Positions 1,975 to 54,549 of a DNA stretch of 64,000 nt are shown here, piece after piece. How positions within the stretch are numbered: the first letter of the stretch is position 1; each line of letters starts with the position of its first letter. The position numbers and the translations under genes are program-made. Under the pieces are notes generated by a model. It searched no databases. It saw only the letters and a list, made by a program, of their open reading frames with translations, and was not told the origin of the DNA. The DNA lies in contig CAMEJC010000001.1 in NCBI GenBank assembly GCA_945919295.1, positions 16,973-80,972 on the forward strand. Direction: 5' to 3'. This DNA comes from an uncultured Mycoplasmatota bacterium (GTDB lineage Bacteria > Bacillota_I > Bacilli_A > RF39 > UBA660).

Positions 1975-3351
1975 ATGAAAACTTTATCTCAATCAAAACA
2001 CATGTCTCATGAGTACTGTTGTACTATTGTTAAAATTGGCGAGGTTAAACCTATTGACGGTTCTGACTTTTTAGGTCAAGTTCTTGTGGAAGGTAGAACT
2101 ATTGTTGTTAGAAAAGATGAAATTCACGAGGGTGATATTTTGTTTTATGTTCAAAATGAATCTCAAATTAATAGAGATTTTACTTTTGTTAATAATTTAT
2201 TTGATGATAAAACATTAAATTATGATACATCACAAAAAGGATATATCAATAAGAATTGCCGTATAAGAATGGTTAAATTAAGAGGTGTTTTATCTATGGG
2301 ATTCTTATTTAGCGTTTCTTGTATGAAAAAATGGTATCCTAATTTCGATGTCGATATCAGCCAACATATTGGTGAGGATTTTGATACTGTAAATGGTGAG
2401 TTATTTGTTAAAGCTTATGTCCCACCTGTTAAAGAGTCTAATGTTAATCGAAATAAAAGTAAAAACAATAACTTAAATAAAATAGATTGTCTTATTCCTG
2501 GTAAATTTCAATTACATTATGATACACAACAACTGAATCGTAATATGGATAAAATTCAACCTAATGATGTAGTTTCTATTTCAGTTAAAATGCACGGAAC
2601 TTCTATTGTTATTGGTAATGTTTTGACTAAATATCCTAAATTTAATGGCCTATATTTTAAATTATTCCCATATTTACCTAAATTTCTAAAGTTTTATAAA
2701 GAAAAATATACTGTTATTTATTCTTCTCGAACTGTCATAAAAAATAGAAATATTAACCCTAAAGTAAAAGATGGTTATTATAGTAAAGATGTTTGGGGTG
2801 AATATTATGAACTACTTAAAAATTATATACCTGAAAATATGACAATTTATGGTGAAATTGTTGGATATGTCGGTGGTACTAACACTATGATACAAAAAGG
2901 TTATGATTATGGATGCAAACCAGGTGAAAATAAATTAATGATATATCGTATATCCACTGAAGATGAAACAGGTAAAAAATATGAGTGGAATGTGTCTGAT
3001 GTTTATGATTTCACTTTATTATTGAAAGATAAAGTTGAACTAAAAGATAAAATACACCCTATTGATATATTATATCACGGTACATTAAAAAACCTATATG
3101 AAGACGTTTCTATTACTACACATTGGAGCGAAAATGTTTTAGAAAAATTGAAAAATGATATAACATTCGGAATGGAACAAGACGAACCTATGTGTAGAAA
3201 TAAAGTACCAAGAGAAGGATTTTGTCTTAGAATCGATAATGATATTATTGATGAATGTTTTAAATTAAAATGTTTAAAATTCTTAAATAGAGAAAGTAAA
3301 CTCATTGATGATGGTGTTATTGATGATTTTGAAATGCAAGAACGTTATTAA
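1975..3351 (+). CDS. RNA ligase, Rnl2/Rnl5-like (N-terminal extra domain plus nucleotidyltransferase)
   Basis: KMHGTS matches ligase motif I KxHGT of Rnl2-type enzymes; REGFCLRID (motif IV-like) and KLKCLK (motif V-like) follow; about 190-aa N-terminal extension. Confidence 0.55.
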   Translation: MKTLSQSKHMSHEYCCTIVKIGEVKPIDGSDFLGQVLVEGRTIVVRKDEIHEGDILFYVQNESQINRDFTFVNNLFDDKTLNYDTSQKGYINKNCRIRMVKLRGVLSMGFLFSVSCMKKWYPNFDVDISQHIGEDFDTVNGELFVKAYVPPVKESNVNRNKSKNNNLNKIDCLIPGKFQLHYDTQQLNRNMDKIQPNDVVSISVKMHGTSIVIGNVLTKYPKFNGLYFKLFPYLPKFLKFYKEKYTVIYSSRTVIKNRNINPKVKDGYYSKDVWGEYYELLKNYIPENMTIYGEIVGYVGGTNTMIQKGYDYGCKPGENKLMIYRISTEDETGKKYEWNVSDVYDFTLLLKDKVELKDKIHPIDILYHGTLKNLYEDVSITTHWSENVLEKLKNDITFGMEQDEPMCRNKVPREGFCLRIDNDIIDECFKLKCLKFLNRESKLIDDGVIDDFEMQERY

Positions 3352-4023: not shown

Positions 4024-4734
4024 ATGAAGATATTTGCTTGGTCAGACGGACATGGTGAGTTTCCACATAAATGGGAAAAAGAAGAACATGTCGACGTAGT
4101 TATAATAGCAGGTGATATTGTCCCATTGCATATTCAACGGGATCCAGAATCATCTTTGAATTGGTTTGAGAGTGAGTTCTTTGATTATGTCAGAAAGGTA
4201 AACGCAGATAAAGTTATACTCGTTGCAGGTAATCATGATTTTATGTTTGAGTATTTCGATAAGAGTTTTATTCTTTCCGAAATAAAGATGCACTCGTTAG
4301 ATGACAAACTTATCTATCTACAGGATGATATGTATGAGTATGGTGGTGAAAAGTTCTATGGAACACCTTGGATTGCCGACCTTCGGAATTGGGCATTCTA
4401 TGCAGAAGACTTGTATGAGAAATTCAGTCATATTCAAACAGGCACAACAATCCTTATAACACATATGCCTCCACATGTGATGAGTGTAGGTTCAACTTAT
4501 CCGTTTGATGATTTTAAGGGTTATCCACAAGAACGCAACTACGGAAGTTTTGCGTTGGCAAACAGAATGACTGAACTTCCGAATCTGAAACTAAATTTCT
4601 GCGGCCATGTCCACACTGGAACACACGGTGGTGTAAAACACGGAAACTGCACTATATACAACGTATCTATCAAAAATGAAGATTATGACAATGTCTATAA
4701 TCAAACTTATGTGGATACGGAAGAATTGATTTAA
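4024..4734 (+). CDS. calcineurin-like metallophosphoesterase
   Basis: SDGHGE, IIAGDIV and LVAGNHDF motifs of the MPP superfamily. Confidence 0.65.
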   Translation: MKIFAWSDGHGEFPHKWEKEEHVDVVIIAGDIVPLHIQRDPESSLNWFESEFFDYVRKVNADKVILVAGNHDFMFEYFDKSFILSEIKMHSLDDKLIYLQDDMYEYGGEKFYGTPWIADLRNWAFYAEDLYEKFSHIQTGTTILITHMPPHVMSVGSTYPFDDFKGYPQERNYGSFALANRMTELPNLKLNFCGHVHTGTHGGVKHGNCTIYNVSIKNEDYDNVYNQTYVDTEELI

Positions 4735-4855
4735 AATATAAATTCAATAATAATTTTTTTTATTATGTATAGTGAATATAATTCAATATAATTTAATATA
4801 ATAACTCATCATAAATATAACAAAAACAACTTTACATTTATACTATATAAATTGA

Positions 4856-9265: not shown

Positions 9266-9682
9266 TTGACAGGTAAAACACACATAACAAGCGGTATAGC
9301 ATTATCATTATTAATTTGCAATAATTTTGTTTCTTTTATATTGGTTTTAGTAGGATTAATATTACCTGATATCGACCATAATAATAGTACATTAGGAAAG
9401 ATAATATCTATTATTTCTAAAATTTTAAAACATAGAGGAATAATGCACTCTATTTGGTTACCTTTAATATTATTATTTATTAATAAGCCAATATTCTATG
9501 GATATTGTTTACATTTGATGCTCGATATATTAACTAAAAATGGCATTAAACCACTTAATCCTATATTTAATTTTTCTATAAAAATACCTTTAATAAAAAC
9601 AGGTGGTGTTTTTGAAAAAATGATTTTTTATTTAATAATTTTTTCAATTTTTATTATTTGTTTAACAAAATGTATTTTATAA
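9266..9682 (+). CDS. membrane protein (YdjM/DUF457-like metal-dependent hydrolase fold?)
   Basis: Multiple TM segments; ILPDIDHNNS motif. Confidence 0.4.
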   Translation: MTGKTHITSGIALSLLICNNFVSFILVLVGLILPDIDHNNSTLGKIISIISKILKHRGIMHSIWLPLILLFINKPIFYGYCLHLMLDILTKNGIKPLNPIFNFSIKIPLIKTGGVFEKMIFYLIIFSIFIICLTKCIL

Positions 9683-9728
9683 ACAAAATTAACCCATATA
9701 TTAAAATATTTTTGTACTTTTGCGGTGT
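9675..9728 (+). promoter_or_regulatory. class-A promoter
   Basis: TTTTATAAACAAAATTAACCCATATATTAAAATATTTTTGTACTTTTGCGGTG. Confidence 0.55.
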
Positions 9729-9805
9729 TAAATGACAACCTATGTATTTTGGTTATTAAAATAATTTTTGTATATTTGTAATGATAACAAATTAAATTTA
9801 GTATT

Positions 9806-10036
9806 ATGGCAAAATTAATTAATGTATATAAGGGAATGGTCCTTACTCCCGAAGAGGAGAGAGAGATGTTTGTTGAAACATTCAAGTATCTTGATAAGAA
9901 GTTAGAAAAATTTCTTTCAAGTAAGTATTTTGATAAACTCTATGAAGAAGATGAGTTTATTGGTGCCGCAGTAGAAGATGCAGCAACCAGAGTATCACAA
10001 ATGATTGATTATTGTGAAAGTGGTTTTTGGGATTAA
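9806..10036 (+). CDS. hypothetical protein
   Basis: 76-aa acidic ORF downstream of class-A promoter 9675-9728. Confidence 0.4.
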   Translation: MAKLINVYKGMVLTPEEEREMFVETFKYLDKKLEKFLSSKYFDKLYEEDEFIGAAVEDAATRVSQMIDYCESGFWD

Positions 10037-39132: not shown

Positions 39133-39157
39133 AATATTAATTTTTTAAGTTAATTAG

Positions 39158-39244
39158 TACCACCAGTGGGATTCGAACCCACACGGACATTACTGCCCAA
39201 CGGATTTTAAGTCCGTCTTGTCTGCCTAGTTCCAACATGGTGGC
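39158..39244 (-). tRNA. tRNA-Leu(TAA)
   Basis: 87 nt; acceptor GCCACCA/TGGTGGT; anticodon arm ACGGA-CTTAAAA-TCCGT (anticodon TAA); long variable arm; T-arm GTGGGTTCGAATCCCAC. Confidence 0.85.
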
Positions 39245-39257
39245 TTATTCATTTTAT

Positions 39258-39533
39258 TTATTTTCTATCACCTATATATTCAACCAATGACTTCATATCA
39301 CGAACTAATTCATCTTTTACCCATGCCTTATCAGCATCGCCACTTAAAGCCATTACTACATCCCGATAACTCAAAATACGACGTTCAGGGTCAGGATGAA
39401 TAGACATTAAAAATGGGTCATCTAATTTATGGCTCAATAGGTCTTTAAAAACTAATTCCATTATCGAAAGTAATACTGAATCATATTCACTACTATTCTC
39501 TTTTTTCCAAATAATAAAATCTTCGTTACTCAT
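39258..39533 (-). CDS. hypothetical protein
   Basis: 91-aa ORF. Confidence 0.4.
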   Translation of the reverse strand: MSNEDFIIWKKENSSEYDSVLLSIMELVFKDLLSHKLDDPFLMSIHPDPERRILSYRDVVMALSGDADKAWVKDELVRDMKSLVEYIGDRK

Positions 39534-39565
39534 ATTATAACTTTTTTTCTATTTCAACAAAATAA

Positions 39566-40174
39566 TTATAAAATTCGTTTACCAATTTTTATTTTCTTTG
39601 CTACAACTTTAGAATCAAATTCATGCCTTTCATCAGAAACTCCTTCAAGCTCAACCTCATGAACAACTATTTCTTTTCCTAAATCTCCATAATAGTAGCT
39701 AAATACATCAGTTAGACTTAAACAAGCGTGAAAACCTTGTTTACATAATAGAGGTTTACCTTTAATTTTATAAGTCTTACCTTCTTCATATTGAAAACCA
39801 CGACAAGTCATATTTGAATTAAATACTTTATATGCTTTGCATTTACCTTCAACTACTTCTTGTGTTTCATAGGTTGTATTACCAATAATTACACTTTTTA
39901 AATTGTTACAAATATCGAAAGCAAATCCTTCAATACTCGTTACTGAATTTGGAATTGTAATAGAAGTAAGATTTAAACAGTCTTTAAACGCACAACGTCC
40001 AATTTCCGTTATTGAGTTAGGTAGAGTAATAGAAGTAAGTAAGGTGCAACCACAGAATGCATAATATCCGATGCTTGTATATCCATCAATCATATCAGAA
40101 GTAATAACTTCTAATTTATCTAATCCAAGTTTTTCTATAAGTACTCTTGTTAATACTTTTTCTTCATTTTCCAT
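39566..40174 (-). CDS. BspA-type leucine-rich repeat protein
   Basis: YAFCGCTLLTSITLPNSITEIGRCAF... matches LRR_5/BspA repeats; C-terminal domain shared with 44270-45016. Confidence 0.55.
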   Translation of the reverse strand: MENEEKVLTRVLIEKLGLDKLEVITSDMIDGYTSIGYYAFCGCTLLTSITLPNSITEIGRCAFKDCLNLTSITIPNSVTSIEGFAFDICNNLKSVIIGNTTYETQEVVEGKCKAYKVFNSNMTCRGFQYEEGKTYKIKGKPLLCKQGFHACLSLTDVFSYYYGDLGKEIVVHEVELEGVSDERHEFDSKVVAKKIKIGKRIL

Positions 40175-40245
40175 AATAACTAAATTTATTCTAAAAGTTT
40201 TTTACATGATAAATTAATGGAGTTCCGTCATCATATTTATAGTTG

Positions 40246-40330
40246 CGGAGGCTGTAGGATTCGAACCTACGGTACCTATTGGTACGGCGATTTTCAAGAC
40301 CGCTGGATTAAACCACTCTCCCAAACCTCC
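40246..40330 (-). tRNA. tRNA-Ser(TGA)
   Basis: 85 nt; anticodon arm GCGGT-CTTGAAA-ATCGC (anticodon TGA); long variable arm; T-arm GTAGGTTCGAATCCTAC. Confidence 0.85.
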
Positions 40331-51552: not shown

Positions 51553-51816
51553 CTAAATCTTCTTCAATGCTTTCTCGAAATCTTTGATTAATTCACCACT
51601 GCAATTGTAACCCACTAAATCTTTGAAATAAGGGGTCACCCATTCGCAAGCTTTGTCTATCAGTGCTTGCTTCTCTTTGGCAAACTGCTCGTCTTTCCAT
51701 TCTGCCATTTCCATTAATAATTTTTTAATAGTAACACGACTGCTCTCTGTGTAGATGATACCTAAGATGATACCTAATTCATCAACTAATGATTCTACTT
51801 TTTCTTCTTGTGTCAT
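51553..51816 (-). CDS. hypothetical protein, family D
   Basis: MAEWKDEQFAKEKQALIDKACEW. Confidence 0.45.
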   Translation of the reverse strand: MTQEEKVESLVDELGIILGIIYTESSRVTIKKLLMEMAEWKDEQFAKEKQALIDKACEWVTPYFKDLVGYNCSGELIKDFEKALKKI

Positions 51817-51915
51817 AGTTTAATTAATTTAAGTTCAACTTCTTCTTTTAGTTTGACACAGCAAAGGTACAAGAAAATTCTAATATACTACATAATTTTG
51901 TTTATAAAAAAATAG

Positions 51916-52593
51916 TACCACCAGTGGGATTCGAACCCACACGGACATTTCTGTCCAACTGTTTTTCATACCACGCTACGATACCATACACAAACAATCT
52001 TGTATTATTTTCTACTATGTTTTATATACACCTACAATTATATTCTCAGTGCGTTTATTCATAGCCCCAATTTCGGCTATTATTGTTGTGATATGTTACC
52101 ATAGTTACCTTGAATATGTGCATCAAAAAAAACATCCTTTCGGAATAGGCACCTCCCATCAAAACATCAAGGTGTTGTGGTATTTGGCTGTCTTTACCAT
52201 ATTGAAATTCTTCGAAGTAATAAAGAATCATGAATAACATTGGTTTTAATAAGGTTTTCCGTACCTTGATTCTTTATAATATCAACGTAGGTATCTCCCA
52301 TTCAGCCTGTACACAATTAAAGTAGAAGTTCACTTCATTATACCATTATAGAACTTTAATTGCTCGATGTAGTCCTTGCACATTATTGATTAGTGTCAGT
52401 AAATTATTGAAATTATTGTCTCCGCAGTGCGAATTAAGTCAAAATTAGGATTTCGATTACCGATTTCCATTTATTAACCCAATAATCTCTTAAAGGATTT
52501 CCACCGAAATTAGGAGATTATAACAAGGGTTGTTCACGCCTTGCCACTCAAATTCATTGAGTCAGTCTTGTCTTCCGTTTCCAACATGGTGGT
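51916..52593 (-). tRNA. split tRNA (Leu-like, long variable arm) interrupted in the anticodon loop by about 590 nt (candidate group I intron)
   Basis: 5' part 52559-52593 (ACCACCATGTTGG...GACTGACTC) and 3' part 51916-51966 (AAAACAGTTGGACAGAAATGTCCGTGTGGGTTCGAATCCCACTGGTGGTA) align to the intact tRNA-Leu copies; anticodon reconstructs as CAA if spliced after C34. Confidence 0.45.
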
Positions 52594-52682
52594 TTATTTC
52601 AATATTTCAAAGATTAGGTACTCATTTGAGTACTTTTAGTTTCACATTTCTGACTTTTACATATTAATAATTTAATTGTTAG

Positions 52683-52756
52683 TGCGCCCAACAGGACTTG
52701 AACCTGTAGCCTGCTGATTATGAGTCAGCTGCTCTAACCTATTGAGCTATAGGCGC
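52683..52756 (-). tRNA. tRNA-Met(CAT) (elongator, or Ile-lysidine type)
   Basis: 74 nt; acceptor GCGCCTA/TGGGCGC; anticodon arm GCTGA-CTCATAA-TCAGC; T-arm ACAGGTTCAAGTCCTGT. Confidence 0.8.
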
Positions 52757-54239: not shown

Positions 54240-54271
54240 AGTTCAATTATTAATTTTAGTTTAATAAATTG

Positions 54272-54358
54272 TACCACCAGTGGGATTTGAACCCACACGG
54301 ACATTACTGCCCAACGGATTTTAAGTCCGTCTTGTCTACCTAGTTCCAACATGGTGGC
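54272..54358 (-). tRNA. tRNA-Leu(TAA), second copy
   Basis: Near-identical to 39158-39244 with a few substitutions. Confidence 0.85.
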
Positions 54359-54464
54359 ATATTTCAAAGATTAGATACTCATTTGAGTACTTTTATTTTC
54401 ACACTGCAAAGATAATATTTTCTTTTGAGATATATAACAATTTTGTTTATAAAATTTATAGTTG

Positions 54465-54549
54465 CGGAGGCTGTAGGATTCGAACCTACGGTACCTATTG
54501 GTACGGCGATTTTCAAGACCGCTGGATTAAACCACTCTCCCAAACCTCC
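54465..54549 (-). tRNA. tRNA-Ser(TGA), second copy
   Basis: Identical or near-identical to 40246-40330. Confidence 0.85.

Follow-up and report, generated by a model that had tools for sequence, protein, structure and literature searches.

The 64,000-nucleotide (nt) stretch of contig CAMEJC010000001.1 analysed here, which we call the window, carries on its minus strand (52593-51915) a transfer RNA (tRNA) gene, tRNA-Leu(CAA), that is divided between anticodon positions 34 and 35 by an insert of 592 nt. The question posed by this locus is what the insert is, and whether a gene divided in this way can still give rise to a tRNA. We find that the insert is almost certainly a group I intron, as judged by its fold and its descent. 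We further consider it highly probable that the intron lies between C34 and A35 of a phage-encoded tRNA-Leu(CAA) and that, as we infer, it is catalytic and spliced by the standard pathway. That the window copy would yield a mature tRNA in vivo seems to us somewhat better than an even prospect on the evidence of its sequence. A reading of the locus from its letters alone (the sequence-only reading) had tentatively proposed a group I intron; that proposal is now supported by a covarying core in the expected order, by the pairing of a guide sequence with the exon end, by a terminal G and by homology to compact introns that match the Rfam model Intron_gpI (RF00028).

The gene itself is missed by ARAGORN in its standard mode and by the Rfam tRNA model. 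With its intron option, ARAGORN reports c[51915,52593] as tRNA-Leu(caa) with a 592-nt intron, in agreement with the insert of about 590 base pairs (bp) in the anticodon loop that had been noticed by eye. The 5' half (52593-52559) reads ACCACCATGTTGGAAACGGAAGACAAGACTGACTC, with CUC as its part of the anticodon loop, and the 3' half (51966-51915) reads AAAAACAGTTGG...TGGTGGTAC, in which the loop bases AAAAA are followed by the stem CAGU. An alignment with the two intact tRNA-Leu(UAA) genes of the window (39157-39244 and 54271-54358) covers both halves and shows about 10 private substitutions, among them a compensatory change from G29:C41 to U29:A41 in the anticodon stem. Because both halves carry substitutions of their own, one of them compensated, the split gene reads as a distinct tRNA species rather than as a broken duplicate, and the sequence-only reading was sound on this point.

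The exons, once joined, fold as an 87-nt tRNA-Leu(CAA) cloverleaf with a long variable arm. The predicted junction of the ligated exons is GACTGACTC↓AAAAACAGTT (↓ marks a splice junction), which appears as ...GACUGACUC-AAAAACAGU... in the predicted spliced product. With the 3' junction set after the G at 51967, a 5' junction after position 34 is the only one among all trial junctions that yields a normal 7-nt anticodon loop. The site at 34/35, the anticodon CAA and the C at position -1 are all as the sequence-only reading had them. The predicted folding of the precursor has a z score of -4.0, and UUG, the codon that the product would read, accounts for 16.6% of the leucine codons in the long open reading frames (ORFs) of the window.

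The identity of the insert becomes clear in the company of its relatives. Two motifs conserved between copies of the window's lineage were scanned for in IMG/VR, where they occurred at 16 and 48 loci, and an nhmmer profile confirmed 31 related copies in 27 IMG/VR loci, on contigs of about 2-410 kb and sometimes two to a locus. According to ARAGORN in intron mode and a trial-junction test, nearly all of these family members reside in the anticodon loops of tRNA-Leu(UAA) and tRNA-Ser(UGA) at 34/35, of tRNA-Arg(UCU) at 36/37 (34/35 in two cases) and of Met-type CAU tRNAs at 36/37. Their guide sequence varies with the exon end that it faces (UGAGU:ACUU, UGGAU:UCU↓A, UGUGU:CAU↓A, GGAGU:CUU↓C), and each time a G stands opposite the last exon base; that base is U, in a U.G pair, in nearly all tRNA-hosted members outside the window's lineage. 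At their 3' junction the copies end near-invariantly in ...GGCUAUGGUAACAUAG-N-GUGGUA-N-G, also written ...GUGGUANG or GUGGUA(A/U/G)G. When a hidden Markov model (HMM) was built from 19 family members outside the window's lineage, it matched the 64-kb window only inside the intron, in four collinear pieces with E values of 5.9e-16, 2.4e-9, 2.5e-6 and 1.1. These comparisons place the window intron in a family whose peripheral domains are enlarged and which is found in numerous tRNA genes on large phage-like contigs from gut and rumen.

The conserved blocks of this family follow the canonical group I order of paired (P) and joining (J) segments. From the 5' end, they comprise the guide and P1, P2, P3 (AUCUCC), J3/4 (UAAAUU), P4, J4/5 (AAA), and P5 with its extension; these are followed by P4', P6, J6/7, P7 (G-A-GACUG), J7/3, P3', P8 (CCUAAG/UAUGG), J8/7 and P7' (CAGUCC), and finally by the 5' strand of P9.0 (ACCAC), P9, a GUAA-capped hairpin, the 3' strand of P9.0 (GUGGU), two bases and a terminal G. 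Every core helix is intact in the window copy (Table 1). The pairing of the exon end with an intron GAGU, which had been suggested for P1, is borne out. The earlier candidate for P7, described even then as weak, is not: GACTAC...ATAGTAG has no G-C binding pair, GACUAC is made up of the P5 3' strand, J5/4 and the P4 3' strand, and ATAGTAG lies in a variable peripheral insert that is deleted in one relative (L014). The real P7 pairs GGCUG with CAGCC, and its 5' strand corresponds to the block GUGUAGAGACUU of a compact relative, L076 (see below), which the Rfam alignment sets on its consensus GUUCAaAGACUAAA. A G-C pair stands beside the bulged base in the window (C-A(bulge)-GGCUG/CAGCC) as in the family (G-A-GACUG/CAGUCC), and we presume that this pair binds guanosine.

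Table 1. Parts of the split tRNA-Leu(CAA) gene and of its intron, in window coordinates
Feature	Position	Strand	Description and basis
5' exon of tRNA-Leu(CAA)	52559..52593	-	Acceptor 5' strand, D arm, anticodon stem 5' strand, C32 U33 C34; alignment to intact tRNA-Leu, ARAGORN intron mode
3' exon	51915..51966	-	A35 A36, rest of anticodon loop and stem, long variable arm, T arm, acceptor 3' strand
Intron, 592 nt, almost certainly group I, without homing endonuclease ORF	51967..52558	-	ARAGORN i(36,592), family HMM, covariation count, Pfam on ORF
P1	52546..52562	-	Exon ACUC and intron A (52562-52558) with guide UGAGU (52550-52546); splice-site pair C34-G instead of U.G; from sequence
P2 hairpin	52523..52544	-	GCAAGG/CCUUGU, 10-nt loop; helix 1, 100% paired, 4/6 pairs changed on both sides
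P3 5' strand	52513..52518	-	AUCUCC, then J3/4 UAAUU (52512-52508); pairs with GGAGAU 52298-52293; helix 2, 98.6% paired, almost invariant
P4 5' strand	52502..52507	-	UCGGUG, then J4/5 GAAA; pairs with CAUCGA 52369-52364; helix 3
P5	52373..52497	-	UCCUU (52497-52493) with AAGGA (52377-52373), enclosing a variable extension; helices 4 and 5
Conserved hairpin in P5 extension	52379..52395	-	CAC-UAAUCAAUAAU-GUG; helices 4 and 5
P4 3' strand	52364..52369	-	CAUCGA, preceded by J5/4 CUA; structure count
P6 hairpin	52314..52362	-	CAAUUAAAG/CUUUAAUUG; helix 6, 4 pairs changed on both sides; window pairs differ from those of the family and still pair
P7 5' strand	52303..52309	-	C-A(bulge)-GGCUG, J6/7 UGUA before, J7/3 AAU after; GGCUG (52307-52303) pairs with CAGCC 52190-52186; helix 7
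P3 3' strand	52293..52298	-	GGAGAU; P3 crosses P7, forming a pseudoknot; structure count
P8	52196..52292	-	ACC-UACG-UUGAUAUU (52292-52278) with AAUUUCAA-UAU-GGU (52209-52196), 68-nt apical insert; helices 8 and 9
J8/7 and P7 3' strand	52186..52195	-	AAAGA (2 bases shorter than in the family) and CAGCC; alignment
P9.0	51970..52181	-	ACCAC (52181-52177) with GUGGU (51974-51970), around a P9 domain that is enlarged and in part duplicated; helices 10-12
Terminal G (omega G)	51967	-	Three bases after P9.0; common 3' end of the family

The fold is supported by covariation. In an alignment of 23 distinct sequences (A4), from which peripheral inserts were removed before realignment with MAFFT, the group I fold is paired in 93.1% of cells, as against 35-42% after a shift of the 3' partners by 1-3 columns. 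Changes on both sides affect 28 of the 69 pairs, compared with 14.2 +/- 2.1 in shuffles (none of 500 reached 28), with a covariation score of 0.238, as against 0.103. Pairs of this kind are concentrated in P2, P7, P9 and P6. P7 has five of its six pairs changed on both sides, a conservative count, because the J8/7 of the window's lineage is shorter and MAFFT sets its P7 3' strand two columns off. As neither P3 nor the base of P8 varies, they carry no information on covariation; P1 and its guide pairing were assessed apart from this count. Individual helices show the same behavior across the family. The U-A pair of P4 is A-U in L027 and L015Arg, and L010 has UCGGUA/UACCGA; P7 occurs as GACUG/CAGUC, GGCCA/UGGUC and GAGUAU/GUAUUC; and P9.0 changes from ACCAC/GUGGU to ACUAC/GUAGU in two members. 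The P9 domain of the window contains a hairpin, CUAUG-GUAA-CAUAU (52104-52091), and a degenerate second copy of it (51988-51976).

Descent offers a second route to the same identification. A scan of species-representative genomes with the 3' block returned 12 contigs, all of them gut or rumen metagenome-assembled genomes (MAGs), and in five of the 12 there are tRNA-Leu(UAA) genes with introns of 228-242 nt at 34/35. These compact introns (L075-L079 and L082, from Ruminococcus/Clostridia MAGs) align with the phage introns through every core block (A5). They have in common with the phage-like family the J3/4-P4 block AAAUUCGGUGGAA, P4' ACCGAGCGA, the block GUGUAGAGACU, the stretch UAUGG...AGUCCAGAC(U/C)ACAAC and the 3' junction GGCUAUGGUAACAUAG(U)GUGGUAAG, as well as the insertion site. 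They differ from the 592-nt window intron, with its C at -1, in their length, in a U at that position and in their significant RF00028 scores. L076 matches the model end to end with 39.3 bits (E 9e-7 in 37 kb and 9e-9 in 361 nt), L079 does so with 30 bits (E 6e-4), and the structure line of RF00028 agrees with the P3, P4, P5, P6 and P8 that we assigned. The enlarged family is clearly related in sequence to the compact introns of Ruminococcus-type chromosomal tRNA-Leu(UAA) genes. On a 204-kb Ruminococcus MAG contig (L082:4672-6364), the intron-bearing tRNA-Leu(UAA) gene is followed directly by a tyrosine-integrase gene; this is consistent with a chromosomal tRNA gene as the host, which an integrative element apparently uses as its attachment site.

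The window intron itself escapes Rfam. The whole window gave neither Intron_gpI nor group II at the gathering score, and the Intron_gpI search that the sequence-only reading had proposed over the intron was negative even at E<=10. The likeliest explanation for the failure of RF00028 on the phage copies is the presence of inserts of 40-200 nt in P5, P6, P8 and P9. The model is known to miss divergent bacterial tRNA introns (PMC13011429).

Close relatives of the window copy show how the element has varied. Further copies of the split gene were found through contigs that carry a neighbouring protein. Those in L004-L006, L088 and L089 are about 99% identical to that of the window; L014 and L011/L012 are 77-81% identical overall; their core is almost identical, and the blocks that fill two peripheral regions differ. 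In 10 related contigs, whose peripheral intron domains are set apart by large indels, the 5' exon shows 100% conservation. Across nine copies of the lineage, two core pairs are fully compensated (C-G replaces U-A in P5, and C-G replaces A-U in the P5 hairpin); the other core changes are one P4 G.U that became G-C, one mismatch that became a pair and one single-base deletion in P6. None of them breaks a core helix, and the peripheral domains differ wholesale. Because the core changes are compensated or preserve pairing while the differences are piled up in the peripheral inserts, this pattern argues that the fold was under selection as these copies diverged.

The origin of the unusual anticodon can be suggested as well. 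Of the nearest intron relatives, L022 has U at -1 in a tRNA-Leu(UAA) gene, and L010 retains only an exon remnant that ends in U. The most economical history, given the U in both, would therefore be a change of U34 to C in an intron-containing tRNA-Leu(UAA) gene. L010 has a peculiarity of its own. At L010:1879-2320 there are the 5' two-thirds of a related element, from P1 to P7' and with U.G at the would-be splice site. No 5' half of a tRNA precedes it, and the terminator-like hairpin at its end (CCUCUG...CAGAGGCAUUUUU) is directly followed by an intact tRNA-Leu(UAA). This element is probably a remnant left by recombination. Another possibility is that it is a free-standing, ribozyme-like RNA upstream of the tRNA.

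Several observations weigh against the conclusion that the insert is a group I intron that is still spliced. The covarying pairs were counted on the same sequences from which the fold was derived. RF00028 at E<=10 found no match on 51800-52700, on L010, L011 or L014, or on nine IMG/VR loci, where group II was not found either; the 39.3 and 30 bits of the compact relatives lie below the gathering score of 50. Scans of Joint Genome Institute (JGI) metagenomes found no intron-less allele (AAGACTGACTYAAAAACAGTTGGACAG), so that the splice junction lacks confirmation by an empty site; nor did they find the lineage-specific P2, and RNA evidence was not found either. Further, the base at -1 is C in the window and in all of its close relatives, which gives a C34-G pair and not a U.G wobble. 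In the Tetrahymena ribozyme, the first step becomes much slower when C-G takes the place of U.G at the splice site. Family-invariant bases are also altered in J2/3 and J3/4 of the window copy; its J8/7 is two bases short, CCUAAG has become CCUACG, and the outer P7 pair is C.A (U-A in L014). The terminal G is U in L011 and L012, the exon base A37 is U in L004-L006, and the predicted spliced tRNA contains an A31.A39 mismatch. Some copies of the lineage thus look impaired.

These departures could be taken to mean that the element is a group I intron by descent which has lost its splicing, or nearly so, through the change of U34 to C and the C-G pair that it created, and that the split gene is a decaying pseudogene within a tRNA cluster. 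The C at -1 in every copy of the lineage, set against the U of nearly all other tRNA-hosted members, speaks for this account, as do the altered terminal G, A37 and family-invariant junction bases, the shortened J8/7 and the mismatch in the anticodon stem. The phage already has two intact tRNA-Leu(UAA) genes, and L010 shows that truncated remnants of the intron persist. However, all core helices of the window copy are intact, and the changes within its sub-lineages are compensatory in P5 and P5b and leave every core helix unbroken. The 5' exon has been kept without change despite the large peripheral indels, UUG codons are common, and a second lineage (L016, L025 and L029) may also have a C at -1 that is paired to G. 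We regard a loss of splicing as unlikely, although by no means negligible. A different account dispenses with an intron altogether and holds that the tRNA was broken by an insertion sequence, a miniature inverted-repeat transposable element (MITE) or a recombination scar. It can point to the missing Rfam intron match on the window and to the lack of an internal ORF with a recognised domain; the sole notable ORF of the intron (61 amino acids) has no Pfam match. But the insert lies exactly between 34 and 35 with nothing lost or duplicated, and homologous inserts occupy precise anticodon-loop positions in many tRNAs, each with a matching guide and a covarying fold. Moreover, neither terminal inverted repeats nor a target-site duplication were found at the junctions, and the transposon or MITE reading was rejected on that ground. 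We consider an insertion of this kind very improbable.

We give even less credence to an intron of another class, be it a protein-spliced bulge-helix-bulge intron, a group II intron or one of the "enigmatic" short tRNA introns of Lak phages. The last of these were also reported without an Rfam classification (PMC6784885), but they measure about 80-115 nt and follow position 37, whereas the window intron, at 34/35, is 592 nt long and contains the core of a group I intron. No group II match was obtained from Rfam at E<=10, and the ends do not have the form GUGYG...AY. The junctions of the family follow a U (C in the window) and a terminal G, as in group I introns. A broader statement would join all of this together: that an undescribed and widespread clade of enlarged group I introns, missed by RF00028, has spread in large phages of gut and rumen, where it has colonised many different tRNA genes (for Leu, Ser, Arg and Met among others) at 34/35 and 36/37; that it probably came from a chromosomal tRNA-Leu intron of Ruminococcaceae; that it was sometimes mobilised by an HNH endonuclease; and that the window lineage splices with C-G. 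To this conjunction as a whole we would grant slightly less than an even chance.

If the intron is spliced by the standard group I pathway, the following course of events can be proposed. The precursor would be transcribed together with the neighbouring tRNA-Met, and the intron would fold into P1-P9, with the exon end ACUC paired to the guide UGAGU. The G-C pair of P7 would bind a free guanosine, which would attack after C34. P9.0 (ACCAC/GUGGU) would then bring the terminal G at 51967 into the same site, where the freed 3'-OH of C34 would attack after that G. The exons, already held together by the anticodon stem, would be joined to give an 87-nt tRNA-Leu that reads UUG. What the sequences establish is the structure of the gene, the intron boundaries, the homology and the fold; both the catalysis and the efficiency of the C-G splice-site pair are presumed.

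Among known systems, the introns of bacterial tRNA genes are close to this one. Position 34/35 of tRNA-Leu is a common bacterial site (PMC13011429), and the sequence-only reading had rightly recognised it as that of the classical cyanobacterial and plastid tRNA-Leu intron. That intron shares with ours the type of gene, the insertion point, a guide directly 5' of P2, exons held by the anticodon stem and a final G; the likeness is one of features and not of direct alignment. The window intron differs from it in its phage-like host, in the anticodon CAA, which places C and not the U of the tRNA-Leu(UAA) lineage before the splice site, and in its 592 nt with large inserts in P5, P8 and P9, as opposed to a compact 230-250 nt or so. 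The tRNA-Ile intron of Azoarcus presumably has a near-identical J6/7-P7 block (GUGUAGAGACU), the P8 receptor CCUAAG/UAUGG, J3/4 AAAUU followed by P4 CGG, and a small P9.0. In IC3 introns, GNRA tetraloops in L2 and L9 dock into receptors in P8 and P5, and P7.1 and P7.2 are absent. In the family, the internal loop of P8 reads CCUAAG/UAUGG, a GAAA-tetraloop receptor sequence (CCUACG in the window), a GUAA loop occurs within the P9 domain, and P7.1/P7.2 are lacking. The family differs from the Azoarcus/IC3-type bacterial tRNA introns in its extra peripheral domains and in a hairpin within the P5 extension. This hairpin, of 3 bp with an almost invariant 11-nt loop, is present in the window and in all family members, and its stem covaries (CAC/GUG, CCC/GGG); it possibly makes a tertiary contact.

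Phage introns provide a further comparison. HNH homing enzymes are typical of mobile phage group I introns, as in Bacillus phage SPO1 with its I-HmuI type of enzyme. The present family is likewise phage-borne, and one of its introns, in a tRNA-Leu(UAA) gene, contains between P7' and P9.0 an ORF for a 171-amino-acid NUMOD4-HNH_3-NUMOD1 (I-HmuI-like) endonuclease (L027:4275-4790), which suggests that the family is, or formerly was, mobile by homing. Unlike the classical phage introns, which interrupt protein-coding genes, the window copy lies in a tRNA gene and has no endonuclease gene. A review of 2014 placed all phage introns observed until then in protein-coding genes, despite the many tRNA genes of phages (PMC3984707). 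The Lak megaphage study of 2019 described phage tRNA introns as previously unreported and found "enigmatic" introns of 80-115 nt after position 37, with no Rfam match (PMC6784885). These resemble ours in their location in phage tRNA anticodon loops, in their origin from gut samples that include pig, and in the lack of an Rfam match. By their published description, in which no group I character is reported, they are clearly a different thing. A full-text search of open-access papers did not turn up any description of group I introns inside tRNA genes of phages, although one may exist.

Some members of the family, and some neighbouring predictions, do not fit the simple pattern. Two members (L055:~4290-4785 and L021:~9393-9910) have no flanking tRNA halves and may interrupt protein-coding or other genes. 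In the second lineage mentioned above (L016:1203-1740, L025:4923-5510 and L029:2962-3549), a C precedes the 5' splice site and ACUC↓A is paired to AGAGU. The 3' junction of these three is ambiguous, as the family-type site leaves a 3-nt anticodon loop and the site chosen by ARAGORN, 4 bases upstream, gives a tRNA-Thr(CGU) with part of P9.0 in its exon. In L046, L034, L081 and L045, the intron mode of ARAGORN predicts many tRNA inserts of 10-190 nt that recall the Lak introns; many of these may be artefacts of its permissive mode.

We treat the window as part of a phage-like genome. It has 29% G+C, many small ORFs and seven other tRNA genes, and it encodes an RNA ligase, a DNA methyltransferase and a sigma factor (PHROG matches). 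No match was found among GenBank phages by blastn of the region or by tblastn of one large ORF, and IMG/VR contained neither the exact exon or junction pattern nor a copy of a neighbour protein. The neighbouring protein of 87 amino acids is present in contigs from pig and other gut metagenomes, including an NCBI MAG contig that is identical over the 1,600 bases compared. The RNA ligase (458 amino acids; window 1975-3351; PHROG 968, E 5e-52) shares the window with the tRNA cluster. RNA ligases of T4-like phages repair the damage done to tRNAs by anticodon nucleases. A pair consisting of tRNA-Leu(UAA) and tRNA-Ser(UGA) occurs twice in the window (39157-40330 and 54271-54549), about 15 kb apart and near-identical. 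Close relatives differ in the tRNA that occupies the slot immediately upstream of the split gene: it is a tRNA-Met(CAU) in the window (52682-52756) and in L088, an unrelated tRNA-Ile(UAU) in L004-L006 (L004:2054-2126), and, in L014 (281-353) and L011 (2032-2104), a tRNA whose anticodon loop is abnormal, with 6 nt. The split tRNA-Leu itself is conserved beside this slot.

The kind of element described here is well known, and the present example has unusual features; what makes it notable is its setting in phage tRNA genes, of which we found no earlier report, the blind spot of RF00028 and a natural C-G splice site. Because the mechanism is that of ordinary group I introns, the advance lies in distribution and detection and not in a new principle. 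Standard tRNA finders and Rfam miss the gene and its relatives, with the consequence that the tRNA inventories of large phages are undercounted, including the suppressor and rare-codon tRNAs that are used to infer recoding. A family of some 30 or more group I introns carried by tRNA genes on phage contigs changes the picture of intron distribution that was drawn in earlier work (PMC3984707, PMC6784885). If the clade is indeed what the broader statement above makes of it, it would overturn the generalisation that phage group I introns occur only in protein-coding genes. The C-G pair of the window lineage provides a natural test of how strict the requirement for a U.G wobble at the splice site is, and the family as a whole links the tRNA introns of phages with those of their hosts, the Ruminococcaceae.

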